Below are positions 5,437 through 29,386 of a DNA stretch of 37,254 nucleotides, piece after piece (position 1 is the stretch's first letter; each line of letters starts with the position of its first letter). The notes beneath the pieces are model-generated. The model saw nothing but the letters and a program-made list of their open reading frames with translations, searched no databases and had not been told where the DNA came from. A program made the position numbers and the translations under genes. Where the stretch lies: positions 1 to 37,254 of the forward strand of contig JBBSWG010000069.1 in assembly GCA_038046425.1 (NCBI GenBank), written 5' to 3'. The DNA is from Nanobdellota archaeon. GTDB lineage: Archaea; Nanobdellota; Nanobdellia; Woesearchaeales; GW2011-AR9.

Positions 5437-5697
5437 TTAGAAATGCATCTTCTCTTTTAATTTCATAATTTCAAGATCCCTTCTTATTTTCTCTATCTCT
5501 TGTTCTTTCATATAATTTTTTTTCATCTGATAGATACCATAAATAAAAGCAACAATACTAATAATTAATAATAGCCAATGAAAAAAGAAAGAGTTGTAGA
5601 TATTCTCATTAGAAAAAGAAAAATAAAATGCTAGTATCCCTAATAAAGCCATAAAAAAATCGTATCTAACATATCGAGGAAAATCGTCTAATCCCAT
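5437..5697 (-). CDS. Small AT-rich hypothetical membrane protein
   Basis: 86-aa ORF with two hydrophobic segments and a charged tail, in an AT-rich patch. Confidence 0.65.
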   Translation of the reverse strand: MGLDDFPRYVRYDFFMALLGILAFYFSFSNENIYNSFFFHWLLLIISIVAFIYGIYQMKKNYMKEQEIEKIRRDLEIMKLKEKMHF

Positions 5698-5868
5698 TTA
5701 TAGCCCCATACTTTTTAACAGGTCATAAAACTCACTTTTAAAGAAAGTTATTATGAAAAGAAGCCCTAAAGTAATAACAGTAATTGTTTGGTTTTTAAAT
5801 ACGAAATATGCTGAAAGAATTATAAGAGTTATTACTATCATAATAAAAATAACCTTTTTAGTCCCCAT
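5698..5868 (-). CDS. Small AT-rich hypothetical membrane protein (start MGTKK preferred over 5958)
   Basis: Two hydrophobic segments. A TATA-like TTTAAATA lies about 25 nt upstream of ATG 5868, and the gene abuts the next one. Confidence 0.55.
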   Translation of the reverse strand: MGTKKVIFIMIVITLIILSAYFVFKNQTITVITLGLLFIITFFKSEFYDLLKSMGL

Positions 5869-6108
5869 TATTCTCTCTTTTTCGATTGTATTATTTAAAT
5901 CTTTCTGCATAAAATAGCATCCCTTTGTTTCCCACCTCGAAAAAGGTTTCTCTTTCAAAACTGACGTTAAGTTTACAACTCAATAATTACCCCCCAAAAT
6001 ATTTATAAAGGGGCACTATTACTACGCTCCTTAAGTCCCGCTGGGATTGGTCATTGAGGCAACTCAGATCACCATTTCTGAGCCAGCCATAAAGCAAGGC
6101 ACATTACT

Positions 6109-6414
6109 ATGCCCCGAGGAATGTATAAATCAGGACGATTCCGCCGTGTTTACGTAAAAACACCGGGTGGAAGAACTGCTCTTCATTACCGAGAAAGCAA
6201 GCCTACGCGAGCACATTGTGGACAATGTGGAAGAGCTCTTGCGGGCGTGCCACGGGAACGACCGGTTATCCTCCGTAGAATTCCTAAATCCTCCCGCCGG
6301 CCGGAACGACCTTATGGCGGGGTATTATGTTCAGCCTGTATGCGGTTACTCTTTCAGGCGAAAGCACGAAGCGCCGGGAATGAAGGAGAAATGGGCGGAG
6401 GGAGTGGGACATGA
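6109..6414 (+). CDS. rpl34e: 50S ribosomal protein L34e (eL34)
   Basis: RRVYVKTPGG...CGQCG...RRPERPYGGVLCSAC signature. Confidence 0.95.
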   Translation: MPRGMYKSGRFRRVYVKTPGGRTALHYRESKPTRAHCGQCGRALAGVPRERPVILRRIPKSSRRPERPYGGVLCSACMRLLFQAKARSAGNEGEMGGGSGT

Positions 6415-6665
6415 GCATATTTGAAGTTGGGCGGCTGGTGATGAAGATAGCCGGAAGAGATGCTGGCGGTAAGGGTGTCGTCATTGAGCAGCTCGATAAT
6501 ATTTATGTTCTCGTTGATGGTGGTCTCCGCAGAAAAAAGGTTAATATAAAGCATTTAGAGCCGCTTTCCGTGGTTATTGAGCTTAATGCTGGTGCTGCTC
6601 ATGAGGAGGTGGAGAGGGAATTTAAAAAATTGGGCTTGCCGGTCTGGGAAAGGAAGGCTCAGTAA
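6411..6665 (+). CDS. rpl14e: 50S ribosomal protein L14e (eL14)
   Basis: EVGRLVMKIAGRDAG...VLVDG..RRKKVNIKHLEP (KOW-like); ATGA overlap with rpl34e. Confidence 0.93.
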   Translation: MSIFEVGRLVMKIAGRDAGGKGVVIEQLDNIYVLVDGGLRRKKVNIKHLEPLSVVIELNAGAAHEEVEREFKKLGLPVWERKAQ

Positions 6666-7729: not shown

Positions 7730-8044
7730 TCATCTCTTCAGATCTTTAAGCATTTCTTTCTGCACCGTCTCCATCATCTGATTCAATTTTTCTTCCTGCT
7801 TTTCCACGCTTTGGATACGTAGCTCCGCGACTTCTTTCTTTTCCTGGAGATCCTTAGCCAGGCCTTCCGTAGACGTCGCGAGCATGATCTTCCCGATAAT
7901 CCGATACGCTTTTTCCGTCGTTTTCAGTTCACGGGTGGCGGATTCCAGCTCGACTAATTGATTCTGCAGCTGTTGCTTTTGCGTTAGAAGAGCCTGCAGA
8001 TTTTGTTGGAGAAGCTGTAGTTGTTGTACCTTTGCGGAAGCCAT
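7730..8044 (-). CDS. pfdB: Prefoldin beta subunit
   Basis: Coiled coil - AYRIIGKIML hairpin - coiled coil; conserved rpl37ae-rpo12-pfdB gene order. Confidence 0.9.
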   Translation of the reverse strand: MASAKVQQLQLLQQNLQALLTQKQQLQNQLVELESATRELKTTEKAYRIIGKIMLATSTEGLAKDLQEKKEVAELRIQSVEKQEEKLNQMMETVQKEMLKDLKR

Positions 8045-10377: not shown

Positions 10378-11102
10378 TGTAATTGCCCCCCAATCGCTTC
10401 TTCCGCCTCTCTTAACTCTTCCTTCGTATTAATCTCCCTAATTAAAGAATCCCCGACATCGAAAGCATAGAAAGGCACTTGAGTTAAAGCATACCGCATC
10501 AAGCCATGACAGTGCTGATTTTTATCGCCGTTGCGGATAAAGCTTTCCACTCTTTCTTTCATGACCACCACCGCAGCTGGAGATAATTTTGCCATCCCAC
10601 TTCCCCGTCCCTGGGCACCAAGTAAATTGGCATTATCCATTTTGATAATCCTATCACCATCTAACAGGACTTGCTCCATGGAACCATTTAACTGCACCTT
10701 TTTATCTACCAGGATAACATTCTCGTAAGGGCTTTCTTTCAGGCGTTTGATGAGCGGCGCAAACAACACAATATCACAGTTGAGATGAATGTACGGTTCA
10801 CTTCCAATCAAACTTCGTGCTTGCCAGTACGAGTAACTGCTATTAGTGGTAGCATATTCCGGATTTAAGGCAAAGGTGAAATTCATATTTTTATATTTTT
10901 CCTTGGACTCCAAAAACGCTAAAATCTTTTCTTTCTTATATCCTAAGACTATGGCCACGTCCGTGATGCCATTCGCCAGCAGGGCATCTAACTGGTATTC
11001 TAAGATTGGTTTTCCGGCAACAGGAACGAGACACTTGGGAAGATCAATGGTGAGGTCTCCTAATCTGCTGCCAATTCCGGCGGCAAGGATGAAGGCTTTC
11101 AT
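10374..11102 (-). CDS. Nucleotidyltransferase, phosphocholine cytidylyltransferase (LicC)-like
   Basis: ILAAGIGSRL...PKCL...NPEYATTNSSYS...LNCDI...EINTKEEL. Confidence 0.88.
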   Translation of the reverse strand: MKAFILAAGIGSRLGDLTIDLPKCLVPVAGKPILEYQLDALLANGITDVAIVLGYKKEKILAFLESKEKYKNMNFTFALNPEYATTNSSYSYWQARSLIGSEPYIHLNCDIVLFAPLIKRLKESPYENVILVDKKVQLNGSMEQVLLDGDRIIKMDNANLLGAQGRGSGMAKLSPAAVVVMKERVESFIRNGDKNQHCHGLMRYALTQVPFYAFDVGDSLIREINTKEELREAEEAIGGQLQ

Positions 11103-11210
11103 TTCCAATTCTAAGAAAATAAAGCATTTAAATAAGTTGTGATATTGTCGTTTTCAAAAAAAAGAACATAAGTACATAATCTTTAAATAACCTCCACTTA
11201 TGAGTGGAAA

Positions 11211-11627
11211 ATGGTCTATCAAAGTATTAAAGATTTTGGAAAGAAGGCCTTTTTGATAAGTAGGTTAGTCGCAGTTCTTAGTGGGTGTGAAGAAAAACGA
11301 AATATAAATCAAGTTTTTTCGGATATCAATCTCGACGGAAGAAAAGACCTTGTTGAGTATATCTATGAGAGTGGTATTCACATCACACTAAATAAATCTG
11401 ATGGAATTTTCGCAGCACGTCCAACATATATTTTACGTTTGAGAAGTAGACCTGAGGAATTCCGCGTTGATGATTTAGATAGAGATAAAATACCGGACAT
11501 CTCGTACGTAGTAGAAAGTGCATTTGGTTGGGGCAGCATTGGGGGATATGATCTGTATCTTGCAAAAGGAAATAATGATGGAACTTTTCAAAGTCCTGTA
11601 AAAATAAAACATTATAAGACACAATAG
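11211..11627 (+). CDS. AT-rich FG-GAP/VCBS-repeat putative lipoprotein
   Basis: LSGC lipobox-like motif; DINLDGRKDL, DLDRDKIPDI, GNNDGTF; own TATA-like TTTAAATA upstream; opposite strand to the surrounding operon. Confidence 0.75.
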   Translation: MVYQSIKDFGKKAFLISRLVAVLSGCEEKRNINQVFSDINLDGRKDLVEYIYESGIHITLNKSDGIFAARPTYILRLRSRPEEFRVDDLDRDKIPDISYVVESAFGWGSIGGYDLYLAKGNNDGTFQSPVKIKHYKTQ

Positions 11628-18454: not shown

Positions 18455-18520
18455 ATTAATAAGAGTGGGACATACAAAAGTATATAAACTTTGCTTTTAC
18501 TCTTTCGTCTACTGCTTAAA

Positions 18521-19642
18521 ATGACTTTTACCATAACGCCCTGGGAAGTGAAAGGAACCATCAACTATGAGCGCCTGATCCAGGAATTTGGCTTGCAGCC
18601 GTTGCGTTATCTTCCGGCCGTATTTCAGAAGAATGTCCTGTTTCGCCGTGGCATCATCTTTGCCCATCGGGATTTCAAGCAGATTGTGGAAGCAATTGAG
18701 CAAAAGAAACCGGTGGTGATGATGACTGGCTTGATGCCTTCCGGCAAATTTCATTTTGGGCATAAGCTGGTAGCGGATCAAATCGTGTTCTATCAATCGC
18801 TGGGAGCGAAAATTTATCTGACGGTAGCGGACATTGAAGCCTACAATTCCCGCCTGCCCAGCATGAAAGAGCTGCGGGAGACGGCAATCAAAGAATATCT
18901 GATCAATTATATCGCTTTGGGGCTGAAGCCAACCAACTGTGATTTTTATTTCCAGTCGCAGCGCTCCAAGGAAGGGAAAGATGAAGGAAGGAAAGCTAAC
19001 GCCTATTATAGTCTAGCGGCCATGCTGGCCCGGCATGTTACCGCCAACGAATTTCAGGCCATCTATGGCGAGATTTCGCCAGGGAAAATGGCTTCGGCCT
19101 TACTGCAAGCTGCTGATATGCTTCATCCACAACTTGCAGAGTTTGAAGGCAAACCAATTCCCGTAGTTGTTCCGGTGGGAGCAGATCAAGATCCTCACTT
19201 ACGACTCGCCCGCGACCTCTCTCAGCGAATCAAAGAATTCAAATTTCTGCAGCTCAGCTCCACCTATCATAAGTTCCTGCCCGGACTGAAAGGGGATAAG
19301 ATGTCGTCCTCTGATCCTACTTCGTTCATTGCCTTAACGGACTCGCCGGAAGAGGCCGCGCTGAAGATTAAAAAATATGCTTTCTCGGGAGGACAACCGA
19401 CAGTGGAAGAGCATCGTCGTCTTGGAGGTGATCCGGAAGTGGATGTAGCCTTCCAGCTGCTCAAGTACGGGTTGGAGCCGGACGATACCCAGTTGCAGAA
19501 GATTTATAATGATTATAGGGCAGGAAAATTGTTGACGGGAGAGCTCAAAGAGTATACCATTAAAAAATTAACGGCTTTCCTTCGGCAGCATCAGGAAAAG
19601 AGGAAGAAGGCGGAGAAGATGATCCAAAAATTCATACTTTAG
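18521..19642 (+). CDS. trpS: Tryptophanyl-tRNA synthetase
   Basis: ITPWEV, HRDF, HFGH, GADQDPH, KMSSS, KYAFSGG. ATG 18521 is preferred to TTG 18491. Confidence 0.96.
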   Translation: MTFTITPWEVKGTINYERLIQEFGLQPLRYLPAVFQKNVLFRRGIIFAHRDFKQIVEAIEQKKPVVMMTGLMPSGKFHFGHKLVADQIVFYQSLGAKIYLTVADIEAYNSRLPSMKELRETAIKEYLINYIALGLKPTNCDFYFQSQRSKEGKDEGRKANAYYSLAAMLARHVTANEFQAIYGEISPGKMASALLQAADMLHPQLAEFEGKPIPVVVPVGADQDPHLRLARDLSQRIKEFKFLQLSSTYHKFLPGLKGDKMSSSDPTSFIALTDSPEEAALKIKKYAFSGGQPTVEEHRRLGGDPEVDVAFQLLKYGLEPDDTQLQKIYNDYRAGKLLTGELKEYTIKKLTAFLRQHQEKRKKAEKMIQKFIL

Positions 19643-19755
19643 CTTTTCAATCAGGAAATCTAAACGTCAATCTTCACCTCACCTTTTTGGAAATAAAAAT
19701 CTTTGTGAACTTTTTTCCCGAAAACTTAAAAAGCGGAACGTTAAGAGTAAACTTC

Positions 19756-19863
19756 ATGCCCATCAAAACCTGTGTTGGCGCAGTGCTGTATGATGATGTA
19801 GGAAAGATCTTTCTGATGACTTCGCCGGCTCACAATGTTTTAACTTTTAGGAGTAATAAATAG
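19756..19863 (+). pseudogene. Truncated 5' copy of the NUDIX gene
   Basis: MPIKTCVGAVLYDDVGKIFLMTSP followed by island-derived residues and TAG. Confidence 0.9.
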
Positions 19864-19944
19864 GAAAGCTTATATATCAGCAGCTCCGATATTAACCTGG
19901 AGGTTTAAAATAGGAAAAAACTATCCCTCTTTATTTTTCAAACA

Positions 19945-20865
19945 ATGAAAAAAAGAAATAATCTTTTAGCAGCTTTAGGCTTAGCTGGAATTCTTGGTGC
20001 CTCTTGGTATTTTAATAAGAATTCTCCAAAAATTGAAAAAGCTGAAGAATCCCCAGCAACTGAAGTCACCTCCAATAAAAACATAGCCAAAAATAATAAA
20101 AAAGCTCGAGAGCAATTTTTAATTGTCTCAAGACCGCATTCTCAGGAAGAAAAAGATGAATTTAGGGATTATATAGCCAATTTAGAAATAGTCCCGCCAA
20201 TACTTTACAAAACTGATGAAAAATGTGATATTAATAAGTTAACAGCAGGTTATACAAAAGAGCATAAGTCCTTTGCTGAGCTAAAGACAAACAACGAGCA
20301 TATTCTATGGAAAGCACTTGACCATCTTATAAATATTGATGTTAATTTGGCTAATTGTTTGCATAAATTAGATAGACAAAGATCAGATTATTTACTAAAA
20401 GAAGCGGCAGGACACTATGAATACAGAGGAAGCTATGGAAGTGCAGGAAGACTATATTATTTTTTAGGTGATAAAAATAAAGCCCGCAAAAATTTCAGAA
20501 AAGACCCCTTAACTTTAGAAGCACTTATTAAATTTACTCCGCCTGAAGAGCTAAATAAATTAAAAGAAGCATATTTAACCCGGGGGGGATATTTAGAAGC
20601 TGGAAAAATTGCCTGGTATCAAGGAGATAGAGAAAAAGGAAGAGAATATATCGCTCAATCTGAAAGATATAAAGAATTAATTGAGAACTGTAGTAATTTT
20701 ATTGATAAAGGAAACGTTAGAAAGGCAATATTTGTTCTGTGGGAATTTAGCCGAATTCCATTTTACAAAGAAGCATTATTAAGCAAGTGCAAAAATGAAA
20801 AATGTAAAAGGGAAATAGAAAATTATATTCCCAATAGTAAAAGCAATGTTATAAAAACATTATAG
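19945..20865 (+). CDS. Membrane-anchored/secreted helical-repeat (TPR-like) protein, paralog A
   Basis: N-terminal basic plus hydrophobic leader; SAGRLYYFLGDKNKAR and EAGKIAWYQGDREKG are TPR-like hairpins. Confidence 0.8.
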   Translation: MKKRNNLLAALGLAGILGASWYFNKNSPKIEKAEESPATEVTSNKNIAKNNKKAREQFLIVSRPHSQEEKDEFRDYIANLEIVPPILYKTDEKCDINKLTAGYTKEHKSFAELKTNNEHILWKALDHLINIDVNLANCLHKLDRQRSDYLLKEAAGHYEYRGSYGSAGRLYYFLGDKNKARKNFRKDPLTLEALIKFTPPEELNKLKEAYLTRGGYLEAGKIAWYQGDREKGREYIAQSERYKELIENCSNFIDKGNVRKAIFVLWEFSRIPFYKEALLSKCKNEKCKREIENYIPNSKSNVIKTL

Positions 20866-21072
20866 ATAACTGTGCAAATCAAGTTTTTGGAGTTGTTTTG
20901 AACCTTTTTATATTGCTCTACCTCCGCCTTTCTTCCGAATAGAGTCATATTTGTCATGAACGCATTTCTGTCCGCAACAAATAATTCTCTTTTTGGATAG
21001 TGCCCGTTATTATAACCTATAGTAGTAATAACTAGGAGAGTTTATATAGAACAACCTCCTATTTTTCAAACA

Positions 21073-21975
21073 ATGAAAAAAAGAAATAATCTTTTAGCAG
21101 CTTTAGGCCTAGCGGGAATTCTTGGTGCCTCTTGGTATTTTAATAAAAATTCTCCAAAAACTGAAAAAACTGAAGGATCACCAGCAGCTAAAACTTTCAA
21201 AATTAGTTCCACAAAAAGAGTTAAAAAAGTGAAAAAAATTGTCATGCTGGGGATAAATAACAAAGGATTTCAAGAGGCAGAAGATGAATACAGATATTAC
21301 ATAGATAATTTGGAGATAGTTCCAGACTTTTTATATAGTAATTATGAAGGATGCAAAATGGATGAATTAAAACAGAAACATGATGATTTAATAAATAAAA
21401 TACAACACAATAATTTTTCATTTGAAGATATAAATAATTTAATATTGGTAAATACTTCTCTTGCAAATTGTCTTCATAATACACCTGATGAAGAGTATAA
21501 AAGAATACTTCTAGAAACAGCAGATTACCTAAGAACATTAAATAGAACGCCCAGCGCAGGAAGGATATACTATTTTTTAGGTGATAATAAAAAAGCAAGA
21601 GAATGTTTTGAAGCAAGTCCACAAACCTTAGAAGAGCTAATAAAATTAACACCAGCTGAAGAACTTCCAGCACTAAGAGATAAATTTGTAGCAGACAAAA
21701 GATACTTAGAAGCTGGAAAAGTGGCCTGGTATGAAGGAGATAAAGAAGAAGCAAGACAGATTATTGAACAATCAGATGAATTTAAACAAGCCTACACTGA
21801 ATGTAAAGAACTAGTAAAAAATAAACTTTATCTGCCAGCCGTAAGAATGCTTTGGAGGCGCCTAAAACTTCCATTTGCAAAAGAAACCGTAATGGGGCTA
21901 TGCAAAAGCAATAGAAAATGTCTTTCTGATGTAAATAATTACAATCAAAATAAAGATGTAATTTCAATATATTAA
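21073..21975 (+). CDS. Membrane-anchored/secreted helical-repeat (TPR-like) protein, paralog B
   Basis: First 29 aa identical to paralog A; SAGRIYYFLGDNKKAR, EAGKVAWYEGDKEEA; shared cysteines. Confidence 0.8.
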   Translation: MKKRNNLLAALGLAGILGASWYFNKNSPKTEKTEGSPAAKTFKISSTKRVKKVKKIVMLGINNKGFQEAEDEYRYYIDNLEIVPDFLYSNYEGCKMDELKQKHDDLINKIQHNNFSFEDINNLILVNTSLANCLHNTPDEEYKRILLETADYLRTLNRTPSAGRIYYFLGDNKKARECFEASPQTLEELIKLTPAEELPALRDKFVADKRYLEAGKVAWYEGDKEEARQIIEQSDEFKQAYTECKELVKNKLYLPAVRMLWRRLKLPFAKETVMGLCKSNRKCLSDVNNYNQNKDVISIY

Positions 21976-21977
21976 AT

Positions 21978-24119
21978 TTAAGAAAAAGAGCTTTTAGTCA
22001 AAGACTTCCCTGTTGGTGCTACTGTTGTAACAGATTTCATTTTTGATATTCCTAATCCTGCACCAGAACATTCAAATTCTGACGCTACTGAACCGCAACG
22101 TGAGTCTTGTGTTTCTCCTGCTGGATTTTGTGTTTCTTCCTGACTAAAAGTGCTTCCATGAGCACAAAAGCTAGCATCACTTCCCCCACTGCTCGCAGAT
22201 TGGCCACTATTTATTTCACAATCTATCATTCCAAACATCTCCAGAAGTTTTTCAGCACATAACGGTGTTTCCCCATAAGACCAGCCTTCATCTCTGGTAT
22301 CTCCTCCCAATCCGCCTGCTGGATCTTTAACTCCCGGAACCGGACCGCCTATATCAGGAGCTTTATCATTTCCGCTGGGTGGAGGAGATCTGCCAAAATA
22401 TTCACAAGCAGCATATTTGCACCAGTCGGCATCTGCTATTACAGATAAAAGATTCGGACCAGTATTCGGAATACACTTGCCAAATAAAGAAACAGCAGCA
22501 CCAGAACAAGCACTGTCTTCACCAGGGAAATCAGCACCACCAACGCCCCTCAAAACATCATTAATTCTTATTTTTCCTTCAGTGCTGGTTCTTTGATCAA
22601 TATGATCTCTCTCATGATTTATTATATCTCTAGGAGTATAGCTATCTTTAGTAATGAATCCAGCACTAAAGGAGGTAAAAGGTGAACCAGAACCTTCTAC
22701 GGGTTGATTATCTGGTGTACTAAGCACTTGGTCACTAATAAAAATAGTATTTGTGTCTATATTAGCACAACCAAGCGCATCATTATGACCACAAACCTTC
22801 CTGGCATCTTTCTGATCAAAGGTTTTATATTTTGCATTATCAGAACGTTTTCCAGTAATGTCGTAAGCCCCATTTCTTTTCAAACTTTTTTGTTCTTCAC
22901 TGTCATCCTTTACTGTTTTTCCACACCCTTTAGAATCGGGAGTTATTTCTGCGCAAGGTTTCTGTTTAGTCGTTTTTCCTTCAAATCCTTCCTTTGATAA
23001 TCCGCCGCATCCAGACTTAGAATTAGGACCAGAAATACCATGCTGAGTTAATCTGCTGCTAAAAACAATTGGTTGTTTATTTTTCGGAAATCTTGATCCG
23101 CATCCCAAGCTATCTGACATAGATGATACATAATCTTCAGCTCCTGAACCGGGAGTTTTAGCTCCCCCGGTTATAGCCGAACAACCAACCTTCATAGCAT
23201 TCCCAATTTCTCTCCATCCCTTACCAGAGGAACCAGCAGCACAAGGAAGAAGAGGCAAAATAAGGTTTGATAAACGCTCTTCTAATCCGTTCATTCCAGA
23301 ACCTGTAGGTGAAGATTTCAATTTTTGAGAACCACTGCCAGATATTTCATTGCCACTTACCAAACCTTGAGCAGCATCTTTTCCTATACCCGCACCAACT
23401 TTACCAGCAACAGTTCCAGAAGACGTCAAAGAACATACTTTTTGAATGTTAAAAACAATATCTTTTCCGGAGATGCCTAAAGGGCTTTTATATTCATTTT
23501 GATTATCTTTGTATACAATATCGCTGCCCATCAGCTCTCCCTCTAATAATTTTCCAGGACTCTGAAAAGAAATTCCTTCAGCACAGATAAATCCAGTATC
23601 CGCCCATTCTGAAAGTGAGCAACCAACCCCATAATTTACTGGTTTCAATGCAAATGTCCAGAAAAGATCATGACTAGCATAACATTCTGGATTTTTTTTA
23701 TTCTTTTCACAAAATAAACCATACATCTCAAATTCACCAGTATAATAATTCCAAGTTACAAAAGGAAAACTCACTTTGGGATAATAAAAATTACATCTTT
23801 CACCAACATCTTCAGCAAGTTGAAGTTCCTTGTAAATTGAAGATTTTCCACTATTTAATATAAAGTCCATAACCAGCCAAGAAGGTTGTAAAATAGCATT
23901 AAAATTATTGCATGTTTGAAATTCGTCTGGTAACAATGGTTTAATGCGCACTTTATCAGCTAGCTGTTTGATAGTACTACCAAGAACTTTGTCTATTTCA
24001 AATAGATTATCACTATCCATGCAAAGAATTTTATCCTCCCACACCCCTAAATGCGTTACCCACTCCTGATTTTTCCCATTCAAAAAATAATTTTTTAAAG
24101 TGTTAACTTCTTTATTCAA
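21978..24119 (-). CDS. Large Gly/Ser/Cys-rich protein with a putative zincin metallopeptidase domain; probably the 3' part of a frameshifted gene starting at 24421
   Basis: 713-aa ORF with about 25 Cys; LGCANIDTNTIFIS...IINHERDHIDQ (HExxH); TTG start, no signal peptide of its own. Confidence 0.7.
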   Translation of the reverse strand: MNKEVNTLKNYFLNGKNQEWVTHLGVWEDKILCMDSDNLFEIDKVLGSTIKQLADKVRIKPLLPDEFQTCNNFNAILQPSWLVMDFILNSGKSSIYKELQLAEDVGERCNFYYPKVSFPFVTWNYYTGEFEMYGLFCEKNKKNPECYASHDLFWTFALKPVNYGVGCSLSEWADTGFICAEGISFQSPGKLLEGELMGSDIVYKDNQNEYKSPLGISGKDIVFNIQKVCSLTSSGTVAGKVGAGIGKDAAQGLVSGNEISGSGSQKLKSSPTGSGMNGLEERLSNLILPLLPCAAGSSGKGWREIGNAMKVGCSAITGGAKTPGSGAEDYVSSMSDSLGCGSRFPKNKQPIVFSSRLTQHGISGPNSKSGCGGLSKEGFEGKTTKQKPCAEITPDSKGCGKTVKDDSEEQKSLKRNGAYDITGKRSDNAKYKTFDQKDARKVCGHNDALGCANIDTNTIFISDQVLSTPDNQPVEGSGSPFTSFSAGFITKDSYTPRDIINHERDHIDQRTSTEGKIRINDVLRGVGGADFPGEDSACSGAAVSLFGKCIPNTGPNLLSVIADADWCKYAACEYFGRSPPPSGNDKAPDIGGPVPGVKDPAGGLGGDTRDEGWSYGETPLCAEKLLEMFGMIDCEINSGQSASSGGSDASFCAHGSTFSQEETQNPAGETQDSRCGSVASEFECSGAGLGISKMKSVTTVAPTGKSLTKSSFS

Positions 24120-24421
24120 ATTAAGTTTGCATTCAAGTATATTTTCCAGGCTTTAACTTTTGTAACATAATCCTTGCGGGGCAAATTAGAATAAACCGGA
24201 CTTACCTTATTAAGCAATTTAAAATCTATTTTCTGGTCGATAGTATATTTACTCAATAAATCTTTAATTTTTTGGACTAAACTCCAGCTAAACAATTTAG
24301 CACCGCTAACACCAGCAACAGAATCCCCGGTGATATTATCTTCTAGCTTAGAACAGCCTAAAACCAGGACTGATAACAAAAATATCACTAGCAGAGCTTT
24401 TAATCTATCACCTCTAATCAT
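24116..24421 (-). CDS. Putative lipoprotein / N-terminal part of the large secreted protein
   Basis: LLVIFLLSVLVLGC leader followed by NITGDSV; 4-nt overlap with the 713-aa ORF. Confidence 0.65.
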   Translation of the reverse strand: MIRGDRLKALLVIFLLSVLVLGCSKLEDNITGDSVAGVSGAKLFSWSLVQKIKDLLSKYTIDQKIDFKLLNKVSPVYSNLPRKDYVTKVKAWKIYLNANLI

Positions 24422-24544
24422 AACTGGTAAAAATAGGCTGGACTATATAAATTCTAGGTTAAATTGGTGTTGCGTGTTTTTTGACAAACTGTTGGTTATT
24501 TTTCTCCAAAAAACTTAAAAAGTCAAACGTTTAGGGTAAACTTC

Positions 24545-24973
24545 ATGCCCATCAAAACCTGTGTTGGCGCAGTGCTGTATGATGATGTAGGAAGGATCTT
24601 TCTGATGACTTCGCCAAAATGGAAAGGCTATCTGGTGCCGGGAGGAAGGATAGAAGAAGGGGAAAGCGAAGAAGAGGCTTTAAGAAGGGAAATCCGTGAG
24701 GAGTTAGGGATAAAAATAACTGATTTATATCGGGCAGGTGAAAGTGTTAAGTTAGCTAGTTCAGACTTTACTGACCCCACGGTAGAATTCCATTTTAAAA
24801 GTTATTTTGCCCGGGTTGAAAGTACCAACATTGAACCAAATCATGAAATTACAGAATATGGCTGGTTCACTCTAGCAGAAGCCCGGCAGCTGCCTCTATT
24901 GGATTCAACGAGAAACCTCGTAGAACAGTTCAGGGAACTTTGGGCGTATAAAAAAAAAGAACCGGAGAAATAA
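24545..24973 (+). CDS. NUDIX hydrolase
   Basis: Nudix box GGRIEEGESEEEALRREIREELG. Confidence 0.95.
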   Translation: MPIKTCVGAVLYDDVGRIFLMTSPKWKGYLVPGGRIEEGESEEEALRREIREELGIKITDLYRAGESVKLASSDFTDPTVEFHFKSYFARVESTNIEPNHEITEYGWFTLAEARQLPLLDSTRNLVEQFRELWAYKKKEPEK

Positions 24974-24988
24974 AAATAAAAACTAACC

Positions 24989-25249
24989 ATGAAAATAGAG
25001 AAGAAAGTCTGGCCGGAGTATTTCCAAAAGATCCTGGAGGGAGTTAAAACCTACGAATTGCGTTTAGCTGACTTTGAATGTGTGCCGGGAGATACCCTTG
25101 TTCTTAAAGAATGGGATCCACAGACTAGGAATTATACCGGCCGGGTTATCGAGAAGAGGGTAACTTACGTTGGCAAGACCAAAAATCTTCCATTCTGGTC
25201 GAAAGAGGAGATTGAACAGCATGGATTTCAAATTATTGCGTTCCAATAG
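24989..25249 (+). CDS. ASCH/PUA-like (DUF3850-type) protein
   Basis: KVWPEYFQKILEGVKTYELR..DF..GDTLVLKEW...YTGR. Confidence 0.85.
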   Translation: MKIEKKVWPEYFQKILEGVKTYELRLADFECVPGDTLVLKEWDPQTRNYTGRVIEKRVTYVGKTKNLPFWSKEEIEQHGFQIIAFQ

Positions 25250-25300: not shown

Positions 25301-25792
25301 TTAGGGGTAAATCAAGTTCTTTCGTATTCCCCCCACCGCCGCTGGTATACTAAAAGCAGCGGCAAACACCAGGCCCAGCAACCAGGCATTATGCGCTTGA
25401 TTCTGCAGGCCTAAATCGCCAATGAAAGTATTAGACCAGAGCACCACCAGCGCTAAATTGGCCAGGGCCAGCAGCGGGATGATAATTCCGGCCAGAAGAT
25501 GATGTTTCCGTTCGAGATGTCCAATGTCCCGAATCAGGAAATGATAGAGAAAGCCGATGGTACCACCAAGAACAATCACGGTGGCATATAACAGAACATC
25601 TGTTAATGCTACCAGAACGGGAATAAGCATCAGCGACACAATAAGGTTAGCAAAAATAATGACCAGCAAGGCGCTCCAGAAAACGATCTTAGAGAAATGC
25701 TTATCATACTGCTCGCTGTGAGCAGAAGCTAGCTTGACTCGGCTTATTTCGGCTAGGTTCCACCCCTTTTCTTTTAAATGAGAGTAGTCCAT
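25301..25792 (-). CDS. Hypothetical membrane protein (4 TM)
   Basis: Start MDYSHL at 25792. The longer track ORF runs through minD and a hairpin element. Confidence 0.75.
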   Translation of the reverse strand: MDYSHLKEKGWNLAEISRVKLASAHSEQYDKHFSKIVFWSALLVIIFANLIVSLMLIPVLVALTDVLLYATVIVLGGTIGFLYHFLIRDIGHLERKHHLLAGIIIPLLALANLALVVLWSNTFIGDLGLQNQAHNAWLLGLVFAAAFSIPAAVGGIRKNLIYP

Positions 25793-25815
25793 GGTGATTT
25801 CGGAAACGCCGTCGT

Positions 25816-25940
25816 GGCGTTTAGCAGCTTCGAACGCATCGCTGTTGAATTTGATGGGGCTGCGTCCCCGTAGGGGGCAACCCCCCGCGACGCCCTCGTT
25901 GTTCGTATCGCTGGCGTTCGACCTGATGCTGCTAAACGCC
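25816..25940. repeat. Intergenic long hairpin element
   Basis: GGCGTTTAGCAGC/GCTGCTAAACGCC (13 bp), inner TCGAACGC/GCGTTCGA (8 bp), apical GGGGG-CAA-CCCCC. Confidence 0.75.
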
Positions 25941-25955
25941 GAGCAGGATAAGTTC

Positions 25956-26663
25956 TTATTCCATACACAACTGCTGGGCCACTTTCTTAAATTCCCGGGC
26001 CGGCTTGCTCCAGCGGTATAAATAATTAACGGGCGCTTGCCGATGCAAGGCCTTCCGCACCTTGTGGTGAAAGGGAATATTGGCAATAATTTTCTGCCCT
26101 AAGATTTCTTCCACTTTTTCTGAACTCAATTCATGCTTCCCCTTATTGCTCATGTTTAACACCACGCCCAGCACCAAGTTATGGTGTGCTTTGGCTAATT
26201 CAATCGTTTTCAGGGCGTCAATCACCGAGCTTAGTGTTGGCGTCACCACCAGCAAAACTTCATCGCTGTTCTTCAAGACTTCACTTACCTCATAGCCCAG
26301 TCCACTGGGCGCATCCACGATCACAAAATCAGCAGCTCCATCCAGATGCTCATATACTTCGCTTAACTTTTGCGGGTCCATCTTCTGGAATTCTGTATAG
26401 GAAGGCGAGGCCGGAATAAACGAAAGGCCACTTTCATGCTCATGAGTGATCTCCGCTAACTCTTTTTCTTTGCGCAGAAAGCGGTTGAGCGTATTCCTAG
26501 GCTGCAGTATGCCCAGATGCAGGCCGATGTTGGGGGTGACTAAATTGGCATCTATTAGGATAGTTTTCTTGTCGAGATTATGAAGAGCTTGGCTCACCGC
26601 GATGGCAGCCGTAGTTTTACCTACCCCTCCTTTTCCTGAGACGAAAGCGATAAAACGGGTCAT
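25956..26663 (-). CDS. minD: MinD/ParA-family ATPase (archaeal MinD-like)
   Basis: SGKGGVGKTT, IDAN..TPN, IVDAPSG, GVVLN. Confidence 0.88.
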   Translation of the reverse strand: MTRFIAFVSGKGGVGKTTAAIAVSQALHNLDKKTILIDANLVTPNIGLHLGILQPRNTLNRFLRKEKELAEITHEHESGLSFIPASPSYTEFQKMDPQKLSEVYEHLDGAADFVIVDAPSGLGYEVSEVLKNSDEVLLVVTPTLSSVIDALKTIELAKAHHNLVLGVVLNMSNKGKHELSSEKVEEILGQKIIANIPFHHKVRKALHRQAPVNYLYRWSKPAREFKKVAQQLCME

Positions 26664-26709: not shown

Positions 26710-26800
26710 GGCACAATCCATTTTGGGGGGGAAGGGCACTATCAGCTCGCATCTTGATAGTGCCCTTCCCCCCAAAATCACTCACTTTTTCGATTGTGCC
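26710..26800. repeat. Intergenic nested inverted repeat
   Basis: GGGGGGAAGGGCACTATCA (26726-26744) / TGATAGTGCCCTTCCCCCC (26755-26773), 19 bp perfect; outer GGCACAATC/GATTGTGCC. Confidence 0.8.
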
Positions 26801-28973: not shown

Positions 28974-29386
28974 GGTAGAGTGGCCTAAGCCGCCTTCGGT
29001 CAGACCCAAAGCATTCCTAAGGAATGCCGATGATCTGTGAAAGCATTCTACTAAGCGTTCGTCATGAACTTGCACCGGCCAGCATTCGCCGTTTCATCGT
29101 TCCCTGCTGAGACGTCAAGGGGTTAACTCATCTCTTTCGCAAGAGACTTCGCCATCAATCATCCCATTCAGCAGGACGTGTCGTTGCTGCGCCAGAGGCA
29201 CGGGCTTTCCCCGTCTCCCTGAGGGAGTGGCCATAGTGTACCATTGATTCCATTGCGAAATCGCCGATACGGGTGGGCGGACTTTCCTCACAAATTTTGG
29301 GGCTCGCTGCGCTCACCCCAAAATTTGTTGTTTTTGGGAACGAGCTAACGGCCTTGATTTGCGAAAGCTTTCTGCCACTGCTACCT
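28974..29386 (-). ncRNA. rnpB: RNase P RNA (archaeal)
   Basis: P4 motifs GAGGAAAGTCCGCC and ACCGAAGGCGGCTTA; P1 GGTAGcAGTGGC/GCCACTCTACC; P2 GAAAGC/GCTTTC; GCAGCAACG, GATGAAACGGC, GGTGCAAG and AGAATGCT conserved blocks. Confidence 0.93.

Follow-up and report, generated by a model that had tools for sequence, protein, structure and literature searches.

How can a block of foreign-looking DNA interrupt the 5′ end of a gene and leave that gene whole, when the block carries no enzyme that could have moved it? This question is raised by contig C69 of a Nanobdellota archaeon, which we analyzed over its entire length of 37,254 nt (the window) as part of a 1.12-Mb assembly of 76 contigs with 46.6% GC (genome G000). 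In this window, an AT-rich segment of 4673 nt (positions 19827–24499) lies between trpS, which encodes tryptophanyl-tRNA synthetase, and a gene for a NUDIX hydrolase, and it is flanked by two direct copies of the upstream region and 5′ end of the NUDIX gene. Our reading, to which we give a probability of roughly 0.55, is that this segment is a horizontally acquired cassette of the genus that was inserted by host recombination with the NUDIX 5′ region of a relative that carried the cassette.

The 5′ end of a NUDIX gene lies on both sides of an AT-rich insert

We found that the direct repeat occupies positions 19711–19826 and 24500–24615, with 107 of 116 ungapped positions identical (92%) and copies that start 4789 nt apart (E = 5.6e-41 in a BLAST comparison of the genome with itself); these two copies are the only ones in the assembly. 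An earlier note on this DNA had described repeats of 106 bp at the same spacing, a match that we recovered and that extends to 116 nt. By alignment and translation, the left copy (19711–19826, + strand) is a remnant made of 45 nt of the NUDIX upstream region and the first 71 coding nucleotides, and its ATG at 19756 opens a stub open reading frame (ORF) of 35 aa (19756–19863, + strand) in which 24 NUDIX codons are followed by 11 unrelated codons and a stop at 19863. The right copy (24500–24615, + strand) holds the upstream region and 5′ end of the intact NUDIX gene, which starts with the ATG at 24545 (24545–24973, + strand, 142 aa); a stub on the left and an intact gene on the right is also how the earlier note had described the two copies. 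The 142-aa protein matches PF00293 (E = 1.4e-21; 77.3 bits against a cut-off of 21.1) and contains GGRIEEGESEEEALRREIREELG, which we take to be a Nudix-box-like motif. A TATA-like AAAACTTAAAAAG is located ~29 nt before the ATG and is the same in both repeat copies; from the general architecture of archaeal promoters, the 45-nt upstream region that contains it is a putative promoter. Since each side of the insert has a copy of the NUDIX upstream region and 5′ end, the gene remains whole.

The nine mismatches between the copies are unevenly distributed. Within the 106-nt core (19721–19826) they fall at 19734–19736, 19743 and 19746 in the upstream part and at 19805 in the coding part, where AAG is changed to AGG (K to R), exactly the five upstream mismatches and one coding mismatch reported before; three more are found within 19711–19720. 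The 45-nt upstream part therefore holds eight mismatches and the 71-nt coding part holds one, a split with P = 0.003 under uniform decay and P = 0.0055 when constraint on the intact copy is allowed. All eight upstream mismatches are within the first 36 nt of the repeat (~22% divergence), and they are followed by exact runs of 58 nt (19747–19804) and 21 nt (19806–19826).

The DNA between the repeats also differs from its surroundings, as the earlier note had it. Measured per 300 nt, GC content is 0.25–0.47 in the interior (~0.33, as compared to 0.47 for the genome) and 0.45–0.53 in the flanks. GC at third codon positions (GC3) is 0.18–0.31 in the interior and 0.54–0.58 in trpS and the SpoIIM-like and MinD-like genes, with the NUDIX gene intermediate at 0.38, and the AT-rich segment is unique in the genome. 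With DNA of foreign composition in the middle and the NUDIX upstream region and 5′ end on both sides, the earlier proposal of an insertion that restores its target is borne out. The chromosomal flank on the left is trpS (18491–19642, + strand; PF00579, E = 8.9e-40; GC3 0.54), whose product is 81–89% identical in amino acid sequence to those of two congeners, G002 and G001, and on the right it is an ASCH/DUF3850 gene (24989–25249, + strand; PF12961, E = 2.4e-16). There is no tRNA gene in the window, and the repeat is not a tRNA gene.

The insert carries four ORFs and no recombinase

Two ORFs of the insert are on the + strand and encode helical-repeat (TPR-like) proteins: protein a (19945–20865, 306 aa), which has an N-terminal hydrophobic segment and was classed from an AlphaFold2 model, and protein b (21073–21975, 300 aa), which is 43% identical to a by sequence comparison. 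On the − strand, a 713-aa ORF (21978–24119) forms the body of a large Cys-rich protein with an HExxH motif at residues 502–506 (paralogue alignment and model), and a 101-aa ORF (24116–24421), which overlaps it by 4 nt, is the signal- or anchor-bearing N-terminal part of the large gene (homologue alignment and reading of the DNA). In an 864-aa homologue encoded on contig C54 of G001, the 101-aa ORF aligns to residues 43–74 and the 713-aa ORF, which is 41% identical to it, aligns from residue 83 on; because the two align consecutively to one homologue, they are one gene with a frameshift near 24119–24145. Contigs of four sequencing runs show no sequence difference in the frameshift region. Three of the four products fit the claim that the insert encodes exported-looking proteins: both 300-aa proteins and the 101-aa ORF have N-terminal hydrophobic segments. 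The 713-aa ORF, as the rest of the frameshifted gene whose start lies in the 101-aa ORF, carries no separate signal.

Profile scans of the four interior ORFs (Pfam, NCBIfam, PADLOC and PHROGs) found no recombinase, no transposase and no curated family, except for a sub-threshold TPR_8 match, in agreement with the previous statement that the interior lacks a recombinase. There is no inverted repeat at the ends of the insert. Taken together, the lack of terminal inverted repeats and the lack of a transposase rule out a transposon; a DDE transposon or insertion sequence was also rejected because the duplicated stretch, 116 nt at this locus, differs from one cassette copy to another. An integrase-mediated element was rejected because there is no tyrosine or serine recombinase in the insert or at its edge and because six cassettes of this kind, compared by eye and by BLAST, share no common att core.

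The first 133 nt of genes a and b (13 nt upstream and 40 codons; 19932–20064 and 21060–21192) are 93% identical, and outside this shared 5′ end the proteins are otherwise ~40% identical. Gene conversion could have produced the shared 5′ end, as could a nested insertion into a gene 5′ end with a geometry like that of the NUDIX stub.

Sibling cassettes have unrelated flanking repeats and empty sites in a sister genome

The insert is one member of a multi-copy family. We examined 12 cassette copies, four in G000 (C69, C76, C51 and C14) and eight in G001, and found that six of the 12 have flanking direct repeats of their own, which are 42–169 nt long, 84–100% identical and unrelated in sequence. 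Besides the 116-nt repeat at C69 (92%), which covers the putative NUDIX promoter region and first 24 codons, these are a repeat of 49 nt (90%) from the last codons of GatD at C51; of 48 nt (94%) from the last 16 codons, with the stop, of a nucleotidyltransferase-domain gene at C76; of 42 nt (100%) from 2 nt upstream and the first 13 codons of iPGM at G001 C54; of 169 nt (84%) from the 3′ end of an 89-aa gene at G001 C55; and of 53 nt (98%) from the spacer between ThrRS and a proline-dehydrogenase gene at G001 C5. For the copies on G000 C14 and on G001 C3, C15, C41, C24 and C12, no flanking repeat was found at E ≤ 0.05, and two of these copies run into contig ends. By eye and by BLAST, we saw no common motif and no terminal inverted repeats across the repeats and ends of the six cassettes, and the non-coding ends of the cassettes had no match in G000, G001 or G002 that would represent a repeat carried from a former site.

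Filled and empty sites can be compared between G000 and G001 at six loci, one of them with other cargo. The genes that flank the G001 cassettes on C55, C3 and C5 are adjacent to each other in G000, on C56, C2 and C26, respectively. At the site of the G000 C51 cassette, the next gene in G001 (C28) starts 24 nt after GatD; at the site of the G000 C76 cassette, G001 (C5) has a GNAT acetyltransferase gene and a 118-aa ORF instead; and the iPGM gene, which has the C54 cassette upstream in G001, has no upstream cassette in G000. At three loci (C51, C76 and G001 C55), both repeat copies can be aligned to the one target copy in the sister genome. The cassettes on C51 and G001 C55 are mutual best matches, with 66% amino acid identity for the large protein and 54% for the helical-repeat protein, and are found at different loci; they are probably orthologous.

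At the NUDIX locus itself, we found no orthologue of the NUDIX gene in 40 relatives (best match 34%; congeners 28–31%) and none in metagenome contigs, in which 24 loci gave a best full-length match of 39% and short segments of up to 64%. Adjacency of trpS and NUDIX was not found in the congeners, since trpS of G002 has other neighbors and the G001 contig ends inside trpS.

Two observations concern individual sibling loci. In G002, which is rated 6% contaminated, contig C132 (3.2 kb) has nearly the same sequence as G001 C54 from 6.9 to 5.4 kb, a match that includes the 3′ end of the large-protein gene, iPGM and the genes after it. Both assemblies may thus draw on one population, and because of the near-identity we did not count C132 as an independent case. 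On G001 C55, the sequence at ~6550–6607, to the left of the remnant repeat, resembles by eye the 3′ end of a tRNA (T-arm and acceptor), placing that cassette between an apparent tRNA gene and the 89-aa gene.

Gene-end repeats also surround other cargo in G000. We found a 340-nt repeat (96%) on C58 (1888–2227 and 3152–3491) around small toxin-antitoxin-like genes, a 141-nt repeat (93%) on C68 (15627–15763 and 17314–17454), a 53-nt repeat (85%) around a second island on C51 (17697–17749 and 23005–23057), and a 37-nt repeat on C71 (4654–4690 and 5751–5787). All four are made from gene ends and enclose small cargo unrelated to the cassettes (toxin-antitoxin-like pairs, a PIN-like pair and others, named from readings of their translations). 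On a quick look, the long-duplication footprint appears to extend beyond the surface-protein cassettes.

Diverged copies recombine within the cassettes

Remnants of the 3′ end of the large gene are present between tandem helical-repeat genes on G000 C76 and on G001 C3, C15, C41 and C5. Each remnant shares 148–168 nt with the live large gene at 77–86% identity, except on C76, where 156 nt are shared at 100%. In the pairs on G001 C3, C15 and C41, 63 of the 88 differences between remnant and live gene are at third codon positions, indicating that both copies evolved as coding sequence. The added unit consists of a short new C-terminal tail and the helical-repeat gene that abuts it, and the old tail is displaced together with its neighbor. 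This arrangement suggests that the tail of the large protein and the helical-repeat protein may function together. On C76, a perfect 156-nt direct repeat (6361–6516 and 7759–7914) surrounds the second helical-repeat gene and a new 32-codon tail, and its left copy sits in a 94-aa remnant ORF of the large-protein 3′ end; the arrangement resembles a tail-plus-partner module inserted very recently. Judging from these remnants, recombination between diverged copies is apparently operating in the cassette loci.

Recombination with an imported NUDIX 5′ region is the favored route

Because the cassette has no mobility enzyme, host recombination functions must have acted on it, and because the repeat copies differ in the way that diverged alleles do, recombination with an imported homologous NUDIX 5′ region is the most likely route. 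The incoming DNA would have been supplied by a related strain in which the cassette was already in place upstream of NUDIX, and the resident NUDIX 5′ region would have recombined with the homologous region on that DNA. In one variant of this route, a circularized fragment would integrate by a single crossover (Campbell type); in another, homology-facilitated illegitimate recombination would use one homologous end and make an illegitimate joint at 19826/19827. Both variants would yield the same product, and either fits the locus equally well. The insertion and its duplication, the missing recombinase, the family context and the empty sites of the siblings are observed in the sequences, and the donor, the pathway and the present stability of the insertion are inferred.

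Integration by homologous recombination had already been raised in the earlier note, and the allele-like mismatches fit an exchange with a homologous piece on incoming DNA; at C76, 3 of 3 repeat mismatches are synonymous, which likewise looks allelic. As a whole, that note is partly supported; it missed the multi-copy cassette family, the recurring footprint and the frameshift in the large gene. Since the cargo is not a nuclease and similar repeats are found around other cargo, a pathway run by the host is the economical reading. In a combined picture, first arrivals at a locus would occur via duplicating insertion, and spread and turnover would occur via recombination; the NUDIX case most likely belongs to the recombination kind and not to the first-arrival kind.

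Several points weigh against this reading. The allele interpretation at the NUDIX locus rests on nine mismatches. Not one synonymous difference is found across the 24 codons, while the 36 nt upstream are ~22% diverged; simple allelic divergence would predict a more even pattern, and an identical recombination core or later gene conversion would fit as well. When the three cassette repeats made from 3′ coding ends are pooled, 17 of 32 mismatches are at third positions (P = 0.19 as compared to an expectation of 0.44), an excess that does not separate this reading from in-situ duplication with later decay of the remnant. We found neither an empty trpS–NUDIX site nor a donor genome in the relatives and metagenome contigs searched, and the sequencing depths of the Logan contigs considered below are a single figure per contig and not copy numbers. 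Finally, recombination leaves the first arrival at a new locus unexplained, and the sharp-edged repeats of G001 (42 nt at 100% and 53 nt at 98%) look like fresh in-situ duplications.

Alternative explanations for the insertion

These last two points favor the alternative that survives best, an in-situ duplication of a long target, which we consider unlikely at the NUDIX locus. In such an event, a staggered cut or resection 116 nt apart, or template switching, would be followed by a fill-in that copies the NUDIX 5′ region, and later mutation or gene conversion would bring the copies to 92% identity. This would account for a first arrival, and it fits repeats that vary from 42 to 169 nt with unrelated sequences by locus, the near-perfect G001 repeats with sharp edges, and the same footprint around other G000 cargo on C58, C68 and C51, including small toxin-antitoxin-like genes; it is also the interpretation given for restriction-modification units in the available part of PMC2853133. 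However, a stub generated in this way should decay evenly, yet mismatches are found at 8 of 45 upstream positions as compared to 1 of 71 coding positions (P = 0.003–0.0055), and while a GC3 of ~0.2 argues that the insertion is young, the promoter part is already ~22% diverged.

Site-specific integration by an Xer-like recombinase acting in trans, with the 58-nt core as the crossover and its flanks as attP and attB arms, is improbable. An identical 58-nt core beside diverged arms would be expected from such an enzyme, G000 has three PF00589 genes for Xer-like tyrosine recombinases of 263–287 aa (C11, 6028–6858; C12, 6050–6841; C43, 6338–7201), and the H47 island, which has no integrase, excises in E. 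coli according to the available parts of PMC3191183 and PMC5426353. In contrast, the repeats of the six sibling cassettes are all unrelated and all differ in length, and by eye they share no motif, which argues against one site-specific enzyme; there are also no terminal inverted repeats, no recombinase gene near any cassette and no tRNA target. From a reading of translations, the recombinase gene on C43 adjoins Hef/XPF-like genes.

To assess the assembly at this locus, we compared Logan contigs (k = 31) from four runs of two studies (X1 and X6; X7 and X8); the sequencing runs containing DNA of the locus are labeled groundwater metagenomes. In each of the four runs, contigs reproduce all four junction arms exactly. 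None of these contigs has a joint that skips 4789 nt or turns back over them, as an empty site or a circle would give, but k = 31 contigs are too limited in reach to span the 58-nt identical core. Depths across island and flanks are 14.4 / 12.5–15.6 / 13.0 in X1, 11.3 / 8.9–12.8 / 9.9 in X6 and 8.7 / 6.8–9.9 / 7.2 in X7, and island depth is close to flank depth in all four runs, near-equal values that would not be expected from a free multi-copy circle or a large island-free subpopulation. The shared 58-nt unitig in X1 has a depth of 23.7 as compared to 13–15.6 for its neighbors (~1.7×), and an X8 contig (19318–19961) crosses the whole left repeat, from trpS into the island, without difference. 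Although an exact stretch of 58 nt can mislead short-k assemblers, the X1, X6 and X7 contigs break there, and a k = 31 graph is the same for the integrated form as for an empty site plus a circle, these depths, the X8 contig and the same architecture with sister empty sites at five other loci in two assemblies make it highly improbable that a free 4.8-kb circle or DNA of another organism was threaded into the contig through that stretch as an assembly artifact.

The cargo is a pair of surface-protein genes

To describe the cargo, we searched 41 genomes with the large protein and found it in four: G000 (six matches on five contigs), both congeners (11 matches in G001), and G040, which has one weak match riddled with stops. 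A profile built from 11 members of the large-protein family recovered 21 proteins among 1.84 billion representatives, and a word-based search of 5.8 billion clusters returned the large protein itself and the G001 protein alone; the latter, at 41% identity and at another locus in G001, is the nearest relative, and none closer appeared among these clusters. A search of genome contigs gave eight loci, all from one archaeal metagenome-assembled genome, and we found no relative on viral contigs. Paralogues of the helical-repeat protein adjoin every large-protein gene, and in 11 of the 12 copies the two genes converge and their 3′ ends abut, whereas on G001 C54 they are divergent. By these searches, the cassette family is apparently confined to this archaeal genus, and it consists of one or more helical-repeat genes and a gene for a membrane-anchored, Cys-rich, zincin-like surface protein.

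Across 11 paralogues, full-length large proteins have an N-terminal membrane anchor, many invariant Cys residues and an invariant HExxH. The AlphaFold model of the 713-aa part has a mean pLDDT of 52 and is confident for residues 1–180 and ~400–525; in this model, the HExxH (502–506) is on a helix (496–508) that follows strands at 430–462. When residues 400–531 were compared by VIA-align, the matches included deuterolysin (1eb6; Z 7.3, rmsd 3.8, 109 residues aligned) and jannalysin (4jix; Z 7.2), within a range of Z 5.2–7.3 to many zincins, values that are middling and common. There was no Pfam or NCBIfam match, and ESM Atlas features were all <0.8. The domain at ~400–530 is thus predicted to be zincin-like and is not assigned to a named family.

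The model of helical-repeat protein a has a mean pLDDT of 80 and is all-alpha over residues 70–298. TPR_8 scores on the 300-aa proteins are 19.5 bits (protein a) and 24.7 bits, under the cut-off of 25.7, and Foldseek found no match in the PDB at E ≤ 0.001 for the helical-repeat model, which has a weak resemblance to TPR and other helical-repeat structures. A predicted complex of protein b (residues 62–300) with the C-terminal 144 residues of the large protein had a score of 0.00 with a poorly folded partner, an outcome that speaks neither for nor against binding.

Other features of the locus and window

The neighborhood to the right of the insert differs among the three genomes. The ASCH orthologue of G001 is on another contig (C14), and beyond ~25300, past the membrane-protein gene, both congeners carry genes of 158 aa and 87 aa instead of ASCH and NUDIX. 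On gene order, the entire stretch from trpS to ~25300 is apparently variable, beyond the AT-rich block alone. Between the membrane-protein gene and the MinD-like gene, a short multi-copy element occupies 25814–25963; it has dozens of matches at 70–90% on many G002 contigs and some G001 contigs, and in X1 its summed depth is 85 as compared to ~14, with many loose ends at 25859/25893. Because of this element, the 261-aa ORF at 25301–26086 is probably overlong and probably overruns the true gene, which is ~168–171 aa in the congeners.

Elsewhere in the window, there is a 56-nt imperfect palindrome (26722–26777, 82% self-complementary) immediately upstream of the MinD-like gene, and an archaeal RNase P RNA, which marks the organism as an archaeon, is located at 28974–29318. 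The composition profile shows further patches of low GC at 5501–6000 (0.27) and 11001–11500 (0.36).

Implications

A dozen copies of a non-nuclease cassette, half of them scarred, together with empty sites in the sister genome and with other types of cargo, argue for a host-run pathway. The cassettes also provide a natural series of young and old events in which models of a staggered break, a template switch and an imported allele can be compared.

More tentatively, and with considerable doubt, the cassettes could represent an archaeal version of polymorphic effector/partner loci. The zincin-bearing surface protein would then have a short, variable C-terminal tail that moves with the convergent helical-repeat gene next to it, new modules would replace old ones by recombination and leave orphan tails behind, and entire cassettes would move from one gene boundary to another by a host-run pathway that is independent of recombinases. 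On this reading, long duplications would keep both neighbors alive in a tightly packed 1.1-Mb genome, and the allele-like NUDIX repeats would be the first sequence clue that such duplications can come from recombination between resident and imported gene ends, as opposed to fill-in of a staggered cut. Episymbiotic archaea of this kind are thought to depend on cell-cell contact, and the genus-specific, fast-evolving pair of zincin-like and helical-repeat surface proteins are candidates for a role in such contact.

Comparison with known systems

In archaeal elements that bear an integrase, the insert lies between att repeats derived from a gene end or a tRNA, and integration leaves an intact target gene. 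The NUDIX insert resembles these elements in its gene-end direct repeats and its restored target; in contrast to them, it lacks an integrase in either whole or partitioned form, it has no tRNA target, and its sibling copies do not share an att core.

The H47 island of E. coli provides a second comparison. In the available parts of the reports on this island, excision and integration are experimental, crossovers occur in segments of identity and att sites are common among strains (PMC3191183; PMC5426353). Like H47, the cassette is a small island without its own recombinase that has extensive imperfect direct repeats and would owe its mobility to host functions. However, each cassette copy has its own repeat, and the cassettes are known here from sequence alone.

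Modular effector loci are similar to the cassettes in another respect. In type VI secretion system (T6SS) arrays of Vibrio cholerae, effector-immunity modules are displaced sequentially via homology-facilitated recombination, and orphan C-termini of Rhs and CdiA proteins are comparable displaced remnants that are referenced in the same source (PMC5361080, as far as its available text goes). Homology-facilitated illegitimate recombination joins DNA through one homologous end and one illegitimate end, as described in the available parts of PMC3240628 and PMC5361080. As in T6SS and Rhs modules, the insert would have one homologous anchor, and the displaced gene end is kept as a remnant beside the new module; within the cassettes, orphan 3′ ends of the large gene are likewise found between tandem partner genes and show a coding-type pattern of substitutions. 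In contrast to those modules, the partner gene is convergent and not co-directional, and the NUDIX anchor is of a housekeeping type and not a conserved part of the cargo.

The closest comparison is with long target duplication. Insertion with long target duplication was reportedly described for restriction-modification gene units by Nobusato et al. in 2000 (Gene 259:99). To our knowledge, the phenomenon has been known since then without a mechanism, and almost solely for bacterial restriction-modification genes. According to the available part of PMC2853133, the repeats of such inserts exceed 30 bp, differ in length and in many cases overlap a start or stop, and the neighboring gene survives; cases were selected as inserts <20 kb with no mobility gene, an empty site in a relative and restriction-modification cargo; the authors (Furuta, Abe and Kobayashi, 2010) suspected that DNA breakage by this cargo contributes; and no archaeal example remained in their screen. 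At the NUDIX locus, the repeats are >30 bp, the insert is <20 kb and has no mobility gene, and the repeat is unique and is not from a tRNA; the cargo is not a restriction-modification system, so a DNA break made by the cargo cannot be invoked. In the literature on long target duplication and on Woesearchaeota islands with direct repeats, we found no published archaeal case of this footprint. The likeness is otherwise extensive: a few-kb insert of unusual GC content with no integrase or transposase, repeats >30 bp of variable length, an intact neighbor and, for the sibling cassettes, empty sites that hold one copy in the related genome. The differences are the archaeal host, cargo of surface proteins and a repeat that covers a putative promoter and 5′ end. 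By its sequence features, the NUDIX-locus insertion is thus apparently of a known and mechanistically unexplained kind, to which it adds the duplication of a putative promoter plus 5′ end, multi-copy non-nuclease cargo, empty sites in a sister genome and a mismatch pattern that points to allelic recombination.

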